A stretch of DNA of 20,233 nucleotides from an uncultured Gemmatimonadales bacterium (GTDB lineage: Bacteria > Gemmatimonadota > Gemmatimonadetes > Gemmatimonadales > GWC2-71-9): positions 1-20,233 of the forward strand of contig CAWJIM010000011.1 in assembly GCA_963842945.1 (NCBI GenBank). The letters are read 5' to 3'. The notes beneath the pieces were generated by a model. It saw nothing but the letters and a program-made list of their open reading frames with translations. It was not told the origin of the DNA and did not search any database. The stretch's first letter is position 1. The number at the start of each line of letters is the position of its first letter. A program made the position numbers and the translations under genes. This document shows, one piece after another, positions 38 through 8,970 of the stretch.

Positions 38-2478
38 GTGGCCTCAGTTCCTGAGATCTTCCACTCAATGGAATACGGGCCTGCGCCCGAGCCTCCCGGG
101 CGGGTGGAGGAATGGCTCGAGCACCGAGGGCGGAGGTTCGGGCTGTTTATCGGGGGACGGTGGAGCGAGCCGGGCCGAGAGACGTTTGAGACGCTGAATC
201 CCGCCACGGCGAGGCCTCTCGCTACCCTGACCCAAGCGAGTCCAGCCGACATAGAACGCGCGGTTGCCGCCGCACGCAAGGCTCAGCCGCAATGGTGGGC
301 GCTGGGCGGGCACGGCCGGGCCCGCTACCTCTACGCAATTGCCCGGCAAATCCAGAAGCACAGCCGGTTCTTTGCCGTCCTGGAATCACTCGACAACGGC
401 AAGCCGATCCGGGAATCCCGCGACATCGACGTGCCGCTGGTAGCGCGTCACTTCTATCACCATGCCGGCTGGGCCCAGCTGATGGAGCAGGAGCTGCCGG
501 AGCGGGAGCCGGTGGGAGTCATCGGGCAGATCATTCCGTGGAACTTTCCGCTTCTCATGTTGGCCTGGAAGATTGCCCCCGCGCTCGCCATGGGAAACAC
601 CGTAGTGCTCAAGCCCGCCGAGTTCACCTCTCTGACGGCGCTGAGGTTCGCAGAGCTGTGCGAGGAGATCGGGCTCCCCTCCGGGGTGGTGAACATCGTG
701 ACGGGGGATGGGCGGGCTGGCGAAGCCCTGGTGAAGCATCCCGATGTGGACAAGATCGCTTTTACCGGCTCGACCGAGGTGGGACGGCTCATTCGCCAGG
801 CGACGGCCGGGAGCGGCAAGAAATTGTCACTCGAGCTGGGCGGAAAGTCCCCGTTCATCGTGTTCGGCGACAGCGACCTGGACAGCGTGGTGGAAGGCGT
901 GGTGGATGCCATCTGGTTCAACCAGGGCCAGGTCTGCTGCGCCGGATCGCGCATCCTGGTGCACGAAGGATCACAGGAACGTCTGGTCTCCAAGCTCAAG
1001 GCGCGAATGGAGACGCTCCGGGTGGGCGATCCCCTGGACAAGGCGGTGGACATGGGCGCCATCATCGCGCCGGTGCAGCTGGAGAAGATTCAGCAGCTGG
1101 TGCGCCGAGGCGAAGACGAGGGCGCTACTCTCTGGCAGCCCTCCTGGAGCTGCCCCCGGGACGGCTGGTTCTTCCCGCCCACGCTGTTCACCGAGGTCTC
1201 GCCGGCGGCTACCATCGCTCAGGTGGAGATCTTCGGGCCGGTCGTGGTGCTGATGACCTTCCGCACCCCGGCGGAGGCGGTGGAGCTGGCCAACAACACG
1301 CGCTATGGCCTGGCCGCCAGCGTCTGGACCGAGAACATCAACCTGGCGCTCGATATTGCCCCGCAGCTCAAGGCCGGCACCATCTGGATCAACTGTACCA
1401 ACGTCTTCGATGCCGCCAGCGGCTTCGGCGGCTACCGCGAGAGCGGCTTTGGCCGGGAAGGCGGACGAGAGGGGCTGAGGGAGTATGTGAAATGGGTAGG
1501 GGAGCGGGGCGGCCGGGCAGCGGGGCAGGAAGGCGGTAAGACGGTAAGTCGGAAAAGCGGTAAGTTCCGGAAAACTGGTGCCCGCAACGCGACTGCAAAG
1601 TCATCCGCTCACGTCTTACCGCCTTACCGCCCTACCGCCTTACCGCCAATCGATCGCACCCCCAAGCTGTACCTCGGCGGCAAACAAGTCCGGCCTGATT
1701 CGGGCTACAGTATCCCGGTGCTGGACCGGGCGGGGAAACACCTGGGTGAAGTGGGGCAGGGGAACCGAAAAGACATTCGCAATGCCGTCGAAGCGGCGCA
1801 CAAGGCGGCCAGCTGGGCCCACGCCACGGCTCATGCCCGGGCTCAGGTGCTTTACTATCTGGCGGAGAATCTGGCGGCCCGAGCCGAGGAGTTTGTGGCT
1901 CGACTGCAAACGTTCGGCGGGTCAGGCGAGAATGAAGTCGCCCTGACCATCGAGCGGATGTACACCTATGCGGCCTGGGCCGACAAGTACGATGGCGCGG
2001 TCCACCATACGCCGTATCGCAACGTCACCCTGGCCATGCCGGAGCCGATCGGCGTCCTGGGCGTGGTGGCTCCCCCGAGTGGCCGCTGCTTGGTTTCGTG
2101 TCCACCGTGCTTCCGGGCGTCGCGCTGGGCAACAGCGTAGTAGCGATTCCATCGGCTGCGGCCCCGCTGGCGGCCACGGATCTGTATCAGGTGCTGGAGA
2201 CCTCGGACCTGCCCGACGGTGTCATCAACATCGTGACCGGCGACCCTCGGGAGTTGGGACGGATCCTTGCCACTCACGACGATGTGGATGGGATCTGGTA
2301 CTTCGGGGACCAGGAGACTGGAGCGGAAGTGGAACGGCTCTCGGCCGGCAACATGAAGCGGACCTGGGTCGAGGAGGCTGCCTCTCGCGATTGGGCCAGC
2401 GCCAGCCTCGGGGCGGGCGAAGAGTTTCTCGAGCAAGCCACTCAGATCAAGAACATCTGGATTCCGTATGGAGAGTAG
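38..2478 (+). CDS. Long two-module aldehyde dehydrogenase (ALDH16-like), one apparent frameshift at about 2072-2076
   Basis: ORF 38..2140 has ALDH motifs IIPWNFP, FTGSTEVG, LELGGKSP (catalytic Glu), NQGQVCCAGSR (catalytic Cys), EIFGPV and FGGYRESGFGREGG, then a second NAD-binding-like module (LYLGGKQVRPDSG...). Adding one base in the C5 run at 2072-2076 joins it to EWPLLGFVSTVLPGVALGNSVV...KNIWIPYGE (ORF 2098..2478). Confidence 0.92.
1500..1647. repeat. Inverted array of 8-nt units inside the ALDH inter-domain linker
   Basis: Left arm GGGAGCGG GGCGGCCG GGCAGCGG GGCAGGAA GGCGGTAA GACGGTAA GTCGGAAA AGCGGTAA (1500-1563). Right arm TTACCGCC TTACCGCC CTACCGCC TTACCGCC (1616-1647). 1532-1563 matches the reverse complement of 1616-1647 at 27/32 positions. 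Confidence 0.9.
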
Positions 2479-2507
2479 CTGGGCCTAGCTCCTGACTCCC
2501 AGCTCTC
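2471..2507. repeat. Heptamer repeat and hairpin at the convergent ALDH/phoU junction
   Basis: CTAGCTC CTGACTC CCAGCTC at 2485-2505. AGCTGGG (2477-2483) is the exact reverse complement of CCCAGCT (2498-2504), extendable by GAG/CTC with a one-base bulge. No U-tract. Confidence 0.5.
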
Positions 2508-3189
2508 TTGCCTCTCCCCGGTCTTCTGCGTGATGCTTGATCGAGCGCCCCTCCACCAGAAACACCACGTCTTCGCCGATGTTCGTTGCCAGGTCGGCAA
2601 CCCGCTCCAGGTTCCGGCTCACCAGGAACAGCTCCATACCCGCGCCGATGGTGTGGGGGTCTTCCATCATGTGGGTCAGCAGGATCCGGAAGACCGAGCG
2701 GTGCAGCGCGTCCACCTTGTCATCCCGCCGGCAGACTTCGCGCCCCGCAGCGGCGTCGCCCCGAATGAAGGCCTCCAGGGCATCGGAGAGCATCTCCCGG
2801 GCTAGTCGAGCCATCTCCACGATCTCGGGCTCCGGTGCAATGGGGCGGGCCTGAAGCAGCCGCTCGGTGGATTGGGCAATGTTGACCGCGTGGTCACCCA
2901 CCCGCTCGAGGTCGTTCGCGATCTTGAGCGCCGAGGTGAGCATGCGGAGGTCTCGCGCCATCGGCTGCTGCAGCGCCAGGAGATTGACGCATTGCTCTTC
3001 GATCTCCACTTCCATCGCGTCGATCACCCGATCGCCGGCGATCACCCGCCTGGCCTTCTCGCTGTCGCGCTCCAGCAGCGCGTCGACCGCCAGGCCCAGC
3101 GCGGCTTCCGCCTCACCGGACATGGTGAGCAGCCGCACCTTGACGTGGCTTAGCTCGTCGTGGAAATGACGATGAACGTCGACACTCAT
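2485..3189 (-). CDS. phoU: Phosphate signalling/transport accessory protein PhoU
   Basis: Motifs [28 protein letters not shown] and [19 protein letters not shown] overlap with the pstB stop; last gene of the pst cluster. Confidence 0.96.
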
Positions 3190-4052
3190 CCGAATCTCCC
3201 GGTGATATACGCCTCGGTGCGCTCGTGGGTCGGCTTGGTGAAGAGCCGCTCGGTCTCATCGAACTCAATCAGCTTGCCCCGATCGAAGAAGCCGGTGTAG
3301 TCGGAGACCCGCGCTGCCTGCTGCATGTTGTGGGTCACGATCACGATGGTGTAGTGTTGCTTCAGCTCGAAGATCAGCTCCTCGATTCTTTGAGTCGCAA
3401 TCGGGTCGAGCGCCGAGCAGGGCTCATCCATCAGGAGCACCTCCGGCTGGTTCCCCAACGCTCTGGCGATGCAGAGCCGTTGCTGCTGCCCGCCTGACAA
3501 TCCCGTGCCAGGCTCTTCCAGCCGATCCTTCACCTCGTCCCACAGGCCTGCCTGACGCAGGCAACGCTCGACGAGATCAGGCAGATCGCGCCGGCTCACC
3601 AGCGCGTTGAGGGCCGGGCCGTAGGCCACATTCTCGAAGACGGTCTTGGGAAACGGATTGGGGCGTTGAAAGACCATCCCCACCCGCTGCCGGAGGGAGA
3701 CGAGATCGGTTCCCGGGCCGAACACCGACATGCCTTCCACCTGGATATCTCCCCGATGGCGCACCCCCGGAATCAGGTCGTTCAGCCGATTGATGGAGCG
3801 GAGGAAGGTGGATTTGCCGCAGCCGGACGGCCCGATGATAGCGGTGACCGCCTTCCGAGGGATCGAAAAGTTCAGGCCGCTCAGTGCCTCGCGCTGGCCG
3901 TAGAAGAAATCGAAGTTGCGAACCTCGATAGCAGACCCTGAGGACGGAACGTCGGAATGACGGAACGTCGGAAAGCGTACTGGTACCGTCGTTCCTTCGT
4001 TCCCCCGTTCCATCGCTCCCTCGTTTCCGCGTCGGATCGTCACCGTGCTCAT
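3186..4052 (-). CDS. pstB: Phosphate ABC transporter ATP-binding protein (second copy, with a repeat-derived N-terminal extension)
   Basis: Walker [21 protein letters not shown], signature LSGGQQQR, Walker [14 protein letters not shown]-terminal [14 protein letters not shown] overlap with the upstream pstB. Confidence 0.96.
3943..4030. repeat. Inverted array of 8-nt units inside the pstB 5' coding region
   Basis: GACGGAAC GTCGGAAT GACGGAAC GTCGGAAA (3943-3974), an 8-nt spacer, then GTACCGTC GTTCCTTC GTTCCCCC GTTCCATC GCTCCCTC GTTTCCGC (3983-4030), whose units are reverse complements of GANGGAAC-like octamers. Confidence 0.88.
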
Positions 4053-4861
4053 CCAAATCTCCCGGTGATGTAGGCCTCGGTCTGATCCTGCCGGGGCGCG
4101 GTGAAGATCTGGCGGGATGGACCGGTCTCGATCATGCTGCCCAGATAGAAGAAGGTGGTCGTGTCGGAGACCCGGGCCGCCTGCTGCATGTTGTGGGTCA
4201 CGATGATGATGGTGAAGTGTCGCTTGAGCTCGAACAGCAGTTCCTCGATCCGCTGGGTGCCCTGAGGGTCCAGCGACGCGGTGGGCTCGTCCAGCAGAAC
4301 AACATCCGGCGAAGGCGCAATGGTGCGAGCCAGGCAGAGCCGCTGTTGCTGACCACCGGACAGGGCCATCGCACTCGTCTTGAGGCGGTCCTTCACCTCA
4401 TCCCATAGAGCAGCCTGGCGTAGAGCCCGTTCGACTATGCCATTCAGCTCCGACCGGCTCATCCTTCCATTTACCCGCAGCCCCGCCGCCACATTGTCAT
4501 AGATCGACATGGTGGGAAATGGAGTGGGCCGCTGGAAGACCATTCCCACCCGGCGCCGCAGCTGCATGACGTTGACCCTCGGGGCATAGATGTCGGCGCC
4601 GTCGAGCAGCACCCGGCCGGTGATCCAGCCATGGTCCGACAGCTCGTGCATCCGGTTCAATGCTCGCAGAAAGGTCGACTTGCCGCACCCGGACGGACCG
4701 ATCAGCGCGTGCACCCGGTTGGGCGCAAAGCTGAGCGATACCGACTTCACCGCAGTGAACTTGCCGTACATGGCCGACAGCTTGTCGGTCACGATCCTGG
4801 GCTCCGCCGCTTTCTCCGGCTCCACGGTGGGCTCGGCGCGAGTCAAGGTGAGCTCAACCAT
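4049..4861 (-). CDS. pstB: Phosphate ABC transporter ATP-binding protein (first copy)
   Basis: [49 protein letters not shown]. Start placed at ATG 4861 (MVELTL...), overlapping the pstA 3' end; the ORF track extends to 4885. Confidence 0.95.
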
Positions 4862-6770: not shown

Positions 6771-7838
6771 TTATTTCAGGGAGAGTCTTTGCTGCAGCAG
6801 CTCGATCACCGGCACCGGGAGTGGCGCGTAGTGCAGATCGGCGGCCATACGCTGAGCGTTAGGTTCGAGCATCCAGTCGAGGAACCCATGAAGGAGCCTG
6901 GCCTTGGCTGTGTCTCGGGGTTCCCGTGGAACCAGCAGCCAGGTGAACGATGCGATCGGGTAGGAATCCTTCCCCGAGGCCCCGGTGATGCTCACCCGAA
7001 AGTCGGTGTCCGGACCGAGCCGGGCACCCGCGGCGGCGGCGGACACGCTCTTGAGGCTGGGCTCGATGAACGCGCCCTCGGCGTTCTTCATCCAGGCGTA
7101 CGGCAAGCCATTGGAGATGGCATAAATCAGCTCGACGTAGCCGAGCGCCCCCTCGGTCTGCTTGACCTGCTGGGTAACTCCTTCATTGCCTTTGCCGCCC
7201 AAACCGGTGGGCCACTGCACCGAGGTGCCCTTGCCGACGGCTCCCTTCCACTGAGGGGAGATCTTCGACAGATAATCGGTAAAGACAAAGGTGGTGCCGC
7301 TGCCGTCGGAGCGGTGGACCACGATGATATCCTGGTTGGGCAGCTTTACGCCGGGGTTGAGAGCGGCGAGCCGGGGATCGTTCCACCGGTTGATCCGGCC
7401 CAGGAAGATGTCCGCCAGGGTAGGTCCATCGAGCTTCAGAGCCGTCTTCCCAGCCGTGGGCAGGTTATAGGTGGCCACCACCGCGCCGAGCACCGTGGGG
7501 ACGTGCAGGACGTTTCCCTTGACTGCGGCTATCTGGGCATCGGTCATCGGCGCGTCGGAGGCGCCGAAGTCCACCGTGCCCTCGGTGAACTGCCGGATGC
7601 CGCCACCGGAGCCGATCGACTGGTAGTTGATCCGGACGCCGGTCTCTTTGTTGTAGGCGTCGAACCATTTGGTGTAGATCGGATTGGGGAAGGTGGCGCC
7701 GGCCCCGGTCAGCGCCGCGCCGGTGCTGGACGCCGCAGCCGGCAGGTTGGACTTGCGAGTGTCGCGATCACCTGGCGAGCAGGCCAGCAGAAGCAGCAAG
7801 AGACTGCCGGCGATGCGGTACTCGAGGCTGAGGCTCAT
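6771..7838 (-). CDS. pstS: Phosphate-binding protein PstS, predicted lipoprotein
   Basis: LTGAGATFP, YQSIGSGGGI, DFGASD, HRSDGSGTT, GKGNEGV, YPIASFTW. N-terminus from ATG 7838 (MSLSLEYRIAGSLLLLLLAC) ends in a lipobox LLAC. Confidence 0.93.
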   Translation of the reverse strand: MSLSLEYRIAGSLLLLLLACSPGDRDTRKSNLPAAASSTGAALTGAGATFPNPIYTKWFDAYNKETGVRINYQSIGSGGGIRQFTEGTVDFGASDAPMTDAQIAAVKGNVLHVPTVLGAVVATYNLPTAGKTALKLDGPTLADIFLGRINRWNDPRLAALNPGVKLPNQDIIVVHRSDGSGTTFVFTDYLSKISPQWKGAVGKGTSVQWPTGLGGKGNEGVTQQVKQTEGALGYVELIYAISNGLPYAWMKNAEGAFIEPSLKSVSAAAAGARLGPDTDFRVSITGASGKDSYPIASFTWLLVPREPRDTAKARLLHGFLDWMLEPNAQRMAADLHYAPLPVPVIELLQQRLSLK

Positions 7839-7877
7839 GCTCCAAGCTGAGCAGTGGGTTGGAATGCCGCCATAGGC

Positions 7878-7924
7878 TGCCACGGATGAACACCGCTCAA
7901 GTGAAGGTCGGTTCATCCGTGGCA
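7878..7924. repeat. Perfect 14-bp inverted repeat (REP-like stem-loop) between the two pstS genes
   Basis: TGCCACGGATGAAC (7878-7891), a 19-nt loop, then GTTCATCCGTGGCA (7911-7924). Begins 7 nt after the stop of the upstream pstS; no U-tract. Confidence 0.85.
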
Positions 7925-7931
7925 CTCCCGA

Positions 7932-8970
7932 CTAGCGAGTGGCGATGGCCTTACCGCCGGCCTTCAGCGTCGGCAGCCGAGCCTGAACCAGCGAGACCAC
8001 CGGGCCAGGCAGCGGGGCATAGTGCAGCTCGGCGGCCATCTTCTGCGCCTCGGGCGTGATCATCCAGGCCAGGAAATCGCGGATGAGCTTGGCCTTGGCT
8101 GTGTCCTTATTGTCCTTCTTGACCAGGAGCCAGGTAAACGACGAGATCGGGTAGGCCTGGTCGCCGGGTGCATTGGTGATCGAGACCCGGAAATCGGTAT
8201 CCTTCGGCAGCTTCACTCCGGCAGCGGCGGCGGTGACGGTCTCTAGCGAAGGGGTAATAAAGTTACCCGCCGCGTTCTTGACCTGGGCGTAGGGCAGCTT
8301 GTTGGAGATGGCGTAGATCAGCTCGACGTAGCCCAGCGCGCCTTCGGTCTGCTTGACCTGCTGGGTCACGCCCTCGTTGCCCTTGCCCCCCAGCCCGACC
8401 GGCCAGTTCACCGAGGTGGCATAGCCGACTTTGTCCTTCCACTCCCGGGAGAACTTGTTGAGGTAATCGGTGAAGACGTAGGTCGTGCCCGAGCCGTCGG
8501 AGCGGTGCACCACGATCAGATCCTGATCCGGCAGCTTCACCCCGGGTTGAGCGCCGCGATCTTCGGGTCGTTCCACTTGGTGACCCGGCCCATGAAGATG
8601 TCGACCAGCAGGTTGCCGTCGAACTTGAGCTTGGTATCCCCGAGCGACGGAAGATTGTAGGTCACGACGACCGCGCCGAGCACGGTGGGAACGTGGAGCA
8701 CGTTGCCGTTGACCGCCTGAATCTGGGACTCGTTCATCGGCCCGTCGCTGGCGCCGAAGTCCACGGTGCCCTCGGTGAACTGGCGGATGCCGCCGCCGGA
8801 GCCGATCGACTGATAGTTGATCTGGATGCCGGTCTTCTTGTTGTAGGCGTCGAACCACTTGGTGTAGATCGGATTGGGGAACGTGGCCCCGGCGCCGGTG
8901 AGGCTCTGGGCGGCGCGGTGCGAGCCGCGAGCCAGCAAGCCCGCTTGCGAGTAGAGTACATCCGCGTCAT
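7932..8970 (-). CDS. pstS: Phosphate-binding protein PstS, Sec-signal type, with apparent frameshifts
   Basis: AGGAG ribosome-binding site before ATG 8970. The mature part AQSLTGAGATFP...ALNPG (ORF 8537..8938) continues as GVKLPDQDLIVVHRSDGSGTT...GGKAIATR (ORF 7932..8858) after a one-base loss at about 8540-8546. Further indel(s) in the signal peptide at about 8915-8955. Confidence 0.9.

Follow-up and report, generated by a model that had tools for sequence, protein, structure and literature searches.

An ALDH16 interdomain linker encoded by convergent octamer arrays in an uncultured Gemmatimonadales bacterium

The window analyzed here, a DNA stretch of 20,233 nucleotides, is contig C11 of an uncultured bacterium (genome G000; 4.3 Mb, 87% complete), and the best protein relatives are in Gemmatimonadales. 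Near its start lies a gene for a two-module aldehyde dehydrogenase (Table 1). Pfam Aldedh matched both pieces of this gene, the N-terminal module being complete (model positions 1–457 of 461), and both modules matched PDB 6MVR (E = 2e-254), which we take to be the Loktanella ALDH16 structure of PMC8160307. The second stretch aligned to 6MVR 482–641, placing the C-terminal module in the same chain, and the catalytic residues E256 and C290/C291 were invariant among 48 sequences. Judged by sequence, the gene is an ALDH16, and aldehyde dehydrogenase activity and a dimeric form are predicted from membership in that family.

Table 1 Features of the ALDH16 gene, its linker and the neighboring pstB element (window coordinates)
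Feature	Position	Strand	Basis or remark
Two-module aldehyde dehydrogenase gene, ALDH16-type, ~800 aa	68..2478	+	one frameshift as assembled
55-codon interdomain linker, predicted disordered	1487..1651	+	conserved bounding motifs; AlphaFold
Outer 5' array, GCGGGGCA-type units, stop-free	1499..1528	+	TRF
Inner 5' arm, GGCGGTAA-type units, TAA only out of frame	1530..1564	+	TRF, frame reading
Loop, K/R/A-rich linker codons	1565..1611	+	genome match search
3' arm, four GGCGGTA(A/G) units, coding strand stop-free	1612..1647	-	repeat search
C-run with reading-frame shift	2072..2076	+	comparison with C21 copy
Second octamer-array element, GGAACGAC-type, in pstB N-terminal extension	3943..4025	-	TRF; translation

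Orthologs encode both ALDH16 modules in one continuous ORF, whereas the window copy is frameshifted at a C-run. A second copy on contig C21 of the same genome, 99.6% identical, carries the opposite shift at this C-run, and one contig from a public sequencing run (depth 3), with a sequence between those of the two copies at the C-run, is in frame. Because the two copies are shifted in opposite directions and the independent contig is in frame, the frameshift is probably an assembly error. Several other apparent frameshifts were seen in the window. Among the public sequencing runs, none contained half of the query words, and no contig listed from four of them spans the linker. The whole window (1–20233) is a second haplotype of G000:C21:177149-196675, with near 100% identity over the ALDH gene and 73–94% across the pst operon; this duplication may reflect a strain bubble, recombination or contamination. 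Further along the window, two tandem pstS-like phosphate-binding genes (6771–8938) are 76% identical, the second being broken by an apparent frameshift near 8540, and the pair is followed by two pstB genes, also in tandem.

In the linker between the two modules, AlphaFold gave residues 484–529 a pLDDT under 50 and assigned them no secondary structure. TRF assigned 1499–1528 to a separate array with unit GGGCAGCG, and the GCGGGGCA-type unit of this outer array is the commonest octamer in the genome, with 79 exact doublets. The loop was unmatched elsewhere in the genome except in the C21 duplicate and is unrelated to the loops of other elements; it is probably host linker sequence. As the initial annotation had described, the two arms can pair at 27 of 32 positions (1532–1563 with 1616–1647) around 52 nt, and folding of 1500–1647 gave a strong hairpin (−76.1 kcal/mol, z = −4.69), matched by none of 200 shuffles. 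One variant is common to both arms (1540–1543 with 1612–1615). The second octamer-array element of the window folded weakly (z = −1.73). The pstB leader that bears it starts in overlap with the upstream stop, and the C21 haplotype of this leader, ~83% identical there, is alignable and without clear repeats; the pair may exemplify repeat decay or overwriting between closely similar copies. An Rfam search over 1300–4200 returned four matches, all far below the gathering score, and no known RNA family.

The initial annotation had proposed that the linker array lost TAA in exactly those units in which it would fall in frame. In the ALDH frame and 8-base register, the codons at these slots do read CGG (1505–1507), GAA (1529–1531) and AAA (1553–1555), and out-of-frame TAA is retained at 1537, 1545 and 1561. 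While the letters are thus as claimed, the signal they carry is weak, with 1553 as the sole clean codon (p ~ 0.1). Unit 1500 has five mismatches to GGCGGTAA and one to GGCAGCGG; because it is not of the GGCGGTAA type, CGG at 1505 cannot be counted as a lost TAA and sits instead in a different, stop-free repeat. The two arrays join at unit 1524, which contains codon 1529. The out-of-frame units 1508 and 1516, left out of the claim, are likewise without TAA. Fisher tests gave p = 0.18 over all eight units and p = 0.10 over the five GGCGGTAA-type units. Against an intergenic background in which 64 of 76 units keep the stop (37 arrays, with gene calls made in this analysis), p was 0.015 with 1529 counted and 0.09 with 1553 alone. 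The three-codon pattern is suggestive, not proof, and stop avoidance at this single locus was rejected as proof of translation since too few units are informative. Taken alone the pattern is ordinary, as any open frame is without in-frame stops.

Translation of the linker between the two ALDH modules, also claimed at the outset, was well supported, by orthologs and structure and not by the three codons. A search for relatives covered 80 loci, from which 74 linkers were extracted (32 from Gemmatimonadota and 42 from others); all 74 were stop-free and had a length that is a multiple of 3. Two of the six unextracted loci were open by hand reading, two lay at contig edges and two were unread. A family set of 151 genomes, 82 with a match and 80 with fetched loci, yielded 76 linkers, 74 of which kept frame and 75 of which were stop-free, the exceptions being a frameshift, a gap of Ns and a TAG in frame. 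The hairpin-plus-array threshold was passed by 53 of 100 distinct Gemmatimonadota linkers. All 53 keep frame despite repeat periods of 7–9 bases, and their stop triplets are distributed over the three frames as 1/48/34, so that a single one of 83 is in frame and a single linker carries an in-frame stop. In G000 itself, five called genes run into a sense GGCGGTAA array and stop at its first in-frame TAA, whereas ALDH16 reads on. Given frame retention, the out-of-frame placement of stop triplets and the unstructured model, the linker is a coding sequence subject to purifying selection, and the tether is almost certainly translated. The initial wording that the element was selected for read-through does not fit, as no stop is read through; filtering by purifying selection does. 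Annotators should be warned that such linkers are real coding sequence and not assembly junk. In one relative (G100:C114, L107), the ALDH16 linker has an in-frame TAG that comes from a heptamer unit, followed nine bases later by GTG, and the TAG-type unit was found in the 3' arm as well; this ALDH16 may be naturally split by the repeat.

The linker was initially, by implication, interpreted as an insert of approximately 50 aa. Linkers in other phyla span 26–66 aa (median 34), with at least 55 aa in 5 of 42, and the 6MVR linker has ~23 aa. Within Gemmatimonadota, the medians are 41 aa with the hairpin versus 38 aa without, a net gain of ~3 aa at the median; the window linker, at 55 aa, is above the median. 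Because repeat-free orthologs already carry linkers of 26–66 aa, the linker existed before the repeats, and a block insert of that size is not supported, hairpin linkers being barely longer than plain ones. The initial annotation had held that equally long, alignable, repeat-free ortholog linkers would speak against its proposal; equally long ones do occur, but they are not alignable.

Arrays of this kind are dispersed over the genome. G000 contains 144 period-7, 157 period-8 and 72 period-9 arrays, and a triplet shuffle of contig C19 gave zero arrays for periods 7 and 8. A convergent partner was found for 152 of the 373 arrays and a divergent partner for 16, and 210 were unpaired within 600 nt; 115 of the arrays begin at a same-strand stop. 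Paired convergent 7–9-base hairpins number 91, with the purine-rich arm first in 89 and with mutually unrelated loops. Twelve of the 91 lie well inside called genes, a count in which one is the C21 duplicate and about three are probably in over-long gene calls. One heptamer hairpin is located at an apparent purN–purH junction within one open frame (G000:C2:140699-142639, L213; the gene names, assigned from motifs, are presumptive), a possible read-through fusion or over-long gene call. More in-frame hairpins were noted at G000:C23:465892-467109, C6:78068-80824, C21:316018-318225 and C2:88826-91594, in genes that we take from their motifs to encode Tgt, a UPF0182 protein, an MFS transporter and a TPR protein.

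The repeat units turn over between close relatives. In the family set of genomes, 40 of 75 members have the linker hairpin (24 heptamer, 15 octamer and 1 nonamer), compared to 1 of 42 orthologs from other phyla; that sole strong octamer hairpin outside Gemmatimonadota belongs to a member of Chthonomonadales (L069). The GGCGGTAA doublet is nearly private to G000, with 44 occurrences there and 1 in 26 other genomes. Of the four genomes in the window's genus, two have differing octamers in this linker, one has a nonamer and one has no repeat. Genome pairs such as G059/G121 and G009/G084 have near-identical ALDH flanks and different units in both arms. The ALDH tree was a quick tree, in which 36 of 73 inner branches are open. 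A linker's own unit was found elsewhere in the same genome in 13 of 14 cases, compared to 17 of 121 for foreign units, in a hand count of five units over 27 genomes with in-linker matches set aside and with kin that are not independent.

How the arms arrive is illustrated by MutS of G000 (G000:C19:527051-529705, L210), in which each occupies a loop of its own, with a conserved native stretch of ~37 aa between the two. From 30 loci, 4 of them unparsed, 26 orthologs were aligned, and both arms were present only in G000 and in the same-genus G094, with a slightly different unit in G094. The second arm adds ~3 aa. Because the MutS arms bracket native coding sequence, it appears that arms can be laid down separately, mostly replacing sequence. 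Complementarity between partner arms was about equal to that across copies in six unit families (mean 18.9 versus 18.9 in the largest), which argues against both fold-back copying and fine-tuned RNA pairing; copying from arm to arm was accordingly rejected, partner arms being no more complementary than arms of other copies. Repeats written by a reverse transcriptase were rejected for lack of a PF00078 match in G000 (87% complete). A RAYT-driven REP model was dismissed as well, as G000, at that completeness, has a single Y1_Tnp gene with no arrays within ~500 nt on either side. That lone gene, of IS200 type, lies downstream of ATP-synthase-like genes (G000:C21:326712-327050, L081). A MITE core with target duplication was discarded because no common core exists and flanking repeats are only 3 nt, at chance level.

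The linker units also bracket genes of the PF05635 four-helix-bundle family. G000 has seven such genes; automatic calling placed arrays beside five of them, and the remaining two show looser inverted repeats by eye. The gene at G000:C19:448286 is bracketed by GGCGGTAA arms of the same polarity as in the linker and the gene at G000:C19:117791 by GCGGGGCA arms; both ALDH16 linker units are therefore flanks of the genome's own PF05635 genes (hits L084 and L088). As assembled, the first of these (L212) appears frameshifted near its 5' end. Of the PF05635 genes in 28 genomes, 151 had sufficient flanking sequence, and 123 of these showed inverted periodic flanks versus 10 of 300 mismatched controls. 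In 12 of the 28 genomes the linker had a 14-mer in common with a cassette of its own genome, and for foreign cassettes this was so in 61 of 756 pairs; the other 16 of 28 linkers had none in common with a detected own cassette. None of 10 genomes lacking a PF05635 match had a hairpin linker, versus 39 of 64 with such a match, 25 of these 64 being without a hairpin linker, in tallies that are not independent because the 74 genomes are related and often incomplete. Among 86 cassette proteins, all 18 pairs with at least 70% identity shared the period and 14 of the 18 had units within one base of each other, compared to 14 of 2,743 pairs below 40% identity. Unit binding by the cassette protein is putative: the unit correlates with protein clade, a correlation that would fit recognition or plain co-inheritance equally. 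Neither the relatives search nor the family search gave an ALDH16 match whose length would allow a whole cassette within the linker. By title and abstract start, in mostly open-access literature, no paper ties the PF05635 family to repeat arrays or reports such arrays in Gemmatimonadota, and the cassette-linked repeat system is apparently unpublished.

We consider it probable that a native ALDH16 tether had its DNA colonized by two convergent arms of the genome's own cassette-bracketing repeats. Each arm would be laid down separately, with the purine-rich one first, and would largely take the place of host sequence that tolerates it. Acquisition of a cassette with a new unit by a lineage would lead to rewriting of both arms at permissive sites, and purifying selection would then retain only in-frame, stop-free versions. 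Most likely, as our best guess, the cassette protein recognizes its cognate convergent arrays and favors or drives their spread, and no benefit of the hairpin to the host would be needed. The repeat-overwritten linker of this known enzyme would then be an instance of a cassette-linked repeat system.

If the host instead selected an mRNA hairpin, as an interdomain ribosome pause or as an RNase or stability signal, with repeats as raw material, the strong fold would be explained, as would the recurrence of a hairpin, with changing units, at this linker position in 40 of the 75 family-set linkers. We regard this as unlikely, as the hairpin is absent from 47 of 100 Gemmatimonadota and 41 of 42 other-phyla linkers, its presence follows PF05635 genes, and partner arms are not specially complementary. 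The block insertion implicit in the initial annotation, a MITE- or RPE-like element of ~150 nt later purged of in-frame stops, would suit the size, palindromic form and frame of the element, the above-median length of the window linker and an ortholog (G081) with the whole hairpin within one MutS loop. It is made distinctly improbable by the lack of a common core in the loops of 91 elements, flanking 3-nt repeats at chance level, the ~3-aa median gain, the native sequence enclosed by the MutS arms of G000 and the lack of an ALDH16 match with room for a whole cassette in the linker.

A purely mutational origin, in which slippage builds an array, fold-back template switching inverts a copy nearby and the cassette protein has no role, accounts for native loops and for the variant common to the two ALDH arms. 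It seems very unlikely in view of the strong polarity (152 convergent versus 16 divergent), the genome-specific units at many unlinked sites and the lack of any excess of variants common to partner arms. That the ALDH16 gene here is a pseudogene or split, with an untranslated linker, could be argued from the downstream frameshifts of both assembled copies and from the repeat-derived TAG in the G100 linker. The opposite shifts at one C-run, the in-frame independent contig, the several other apparent frameshifts in the window and the open linker itself render this extremely unlikely.

The comparison describes one linker repeatedly rewritten, in both arms at once, in each species' current unit, with a large orphan gene family linked to the unit. 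The origin of dispersed 7–9-base arrays would become testable with the cognate pair of G000:C19:448286 and GGCGGTAA. A further proposal, offered tentatively and which we would sooner expect to fail than to hold, is that the active part of a selfish system not yet described lies in the PF05635 cassettes: each protein would recognize a 7–9-base unit of its own and have convergent arms of it overwrite host DNA that tolerates them, protein linkers included. If true, each new cassette would rewrite disordered segments of housekeeping proteins genome-wide, and the unexplained heptamer and octamer arrays of many bacteria would have one cause and linkers a route to rapid evolution.

Several known systems resemble parts of this one. 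The Loktanella LsALDH16 structure (PDB 6MVR/6MVS/6MVT/6MVU) is described in the cited passages of PMC8160307. Like that protein, the window ALDH16 carries a catalytic ALDH module and, C-terminal to it in a single chain, a cofactor-domain-like module, and both align; unlike its ~23-aa linker, the linker here has 55 aa and is encoded by repeat arms. Xanthomonas GGGAATC and Nostoc GGGGA(C/T)T heptamers form dispersed tandem arrays, often in convergent pairs, that lie close behind the upstream ORF and are mostly intergenic, with 7–11% intragenic in Xanthomonas, according to the cited passages of PMC4692102; the term 'four helix' is absent from its main text. As in the Xanthomonas pairs, arrays here are dispersed and convergent, with the G-rich arm behind the upstream gene. 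In contrast to both, the present genomes have many 7–9-nt units each, with turnover between close species, and arrays that lie within protein linkers and agree with the flanks of PF05635 cassettes. As regards G-quadruplex formation, a trait of the Xanthomonas-type pairs, GGCGGTAA has two-G tracts only.

Rickettsia RPEs, as the cited portions of PMC10969869 and PMC3733652 describe them, are ~150-nt palindromes in frame inside housekeeping genes, block insertions that encode a conserved peptide; the portion of PMC3733652 does not mention gemmatimonad genomes. The linker element is similarly an in-frame palindrome tolerated at a flexible spot inside an ORF. It differs in having no conserved core or peptide, arms that are tandem arrays and a loop that can be host sequence. 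RPE membership was rejected, as loops are unrelated and peptides and units differ among orthologs, as was MITE membership, given the lack of a common core, flanking repeats of only 3 nt and the native loop in MutS. The Beggiatoaceae TAACTGA unit ends ORFs in the one direction in which it bears a stop and is intragenic only where stop-free, in the cited part of PMC4679880. Orientation-dependent tolerance of a stop-bearing unit is common to both systems; TAACTGA arrays are almost all single and direct, whereas here the stop-bearing arm lies in sense, mid-gene. REP/BIME elements are 20–40-bp palindromes with GTAG or CGTC, whereas the arms here are tandem arrays; there is one CGTC ahead of the 3' arm at 1612, and most listed copies are without the tag. 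The linker element differs from PF05635 cassettes (annotated as '23S rRNA intervening sequence protein') in being without such an ORF and resembles them in its arms, whose units and polarity match the flanks of two G000 genes.
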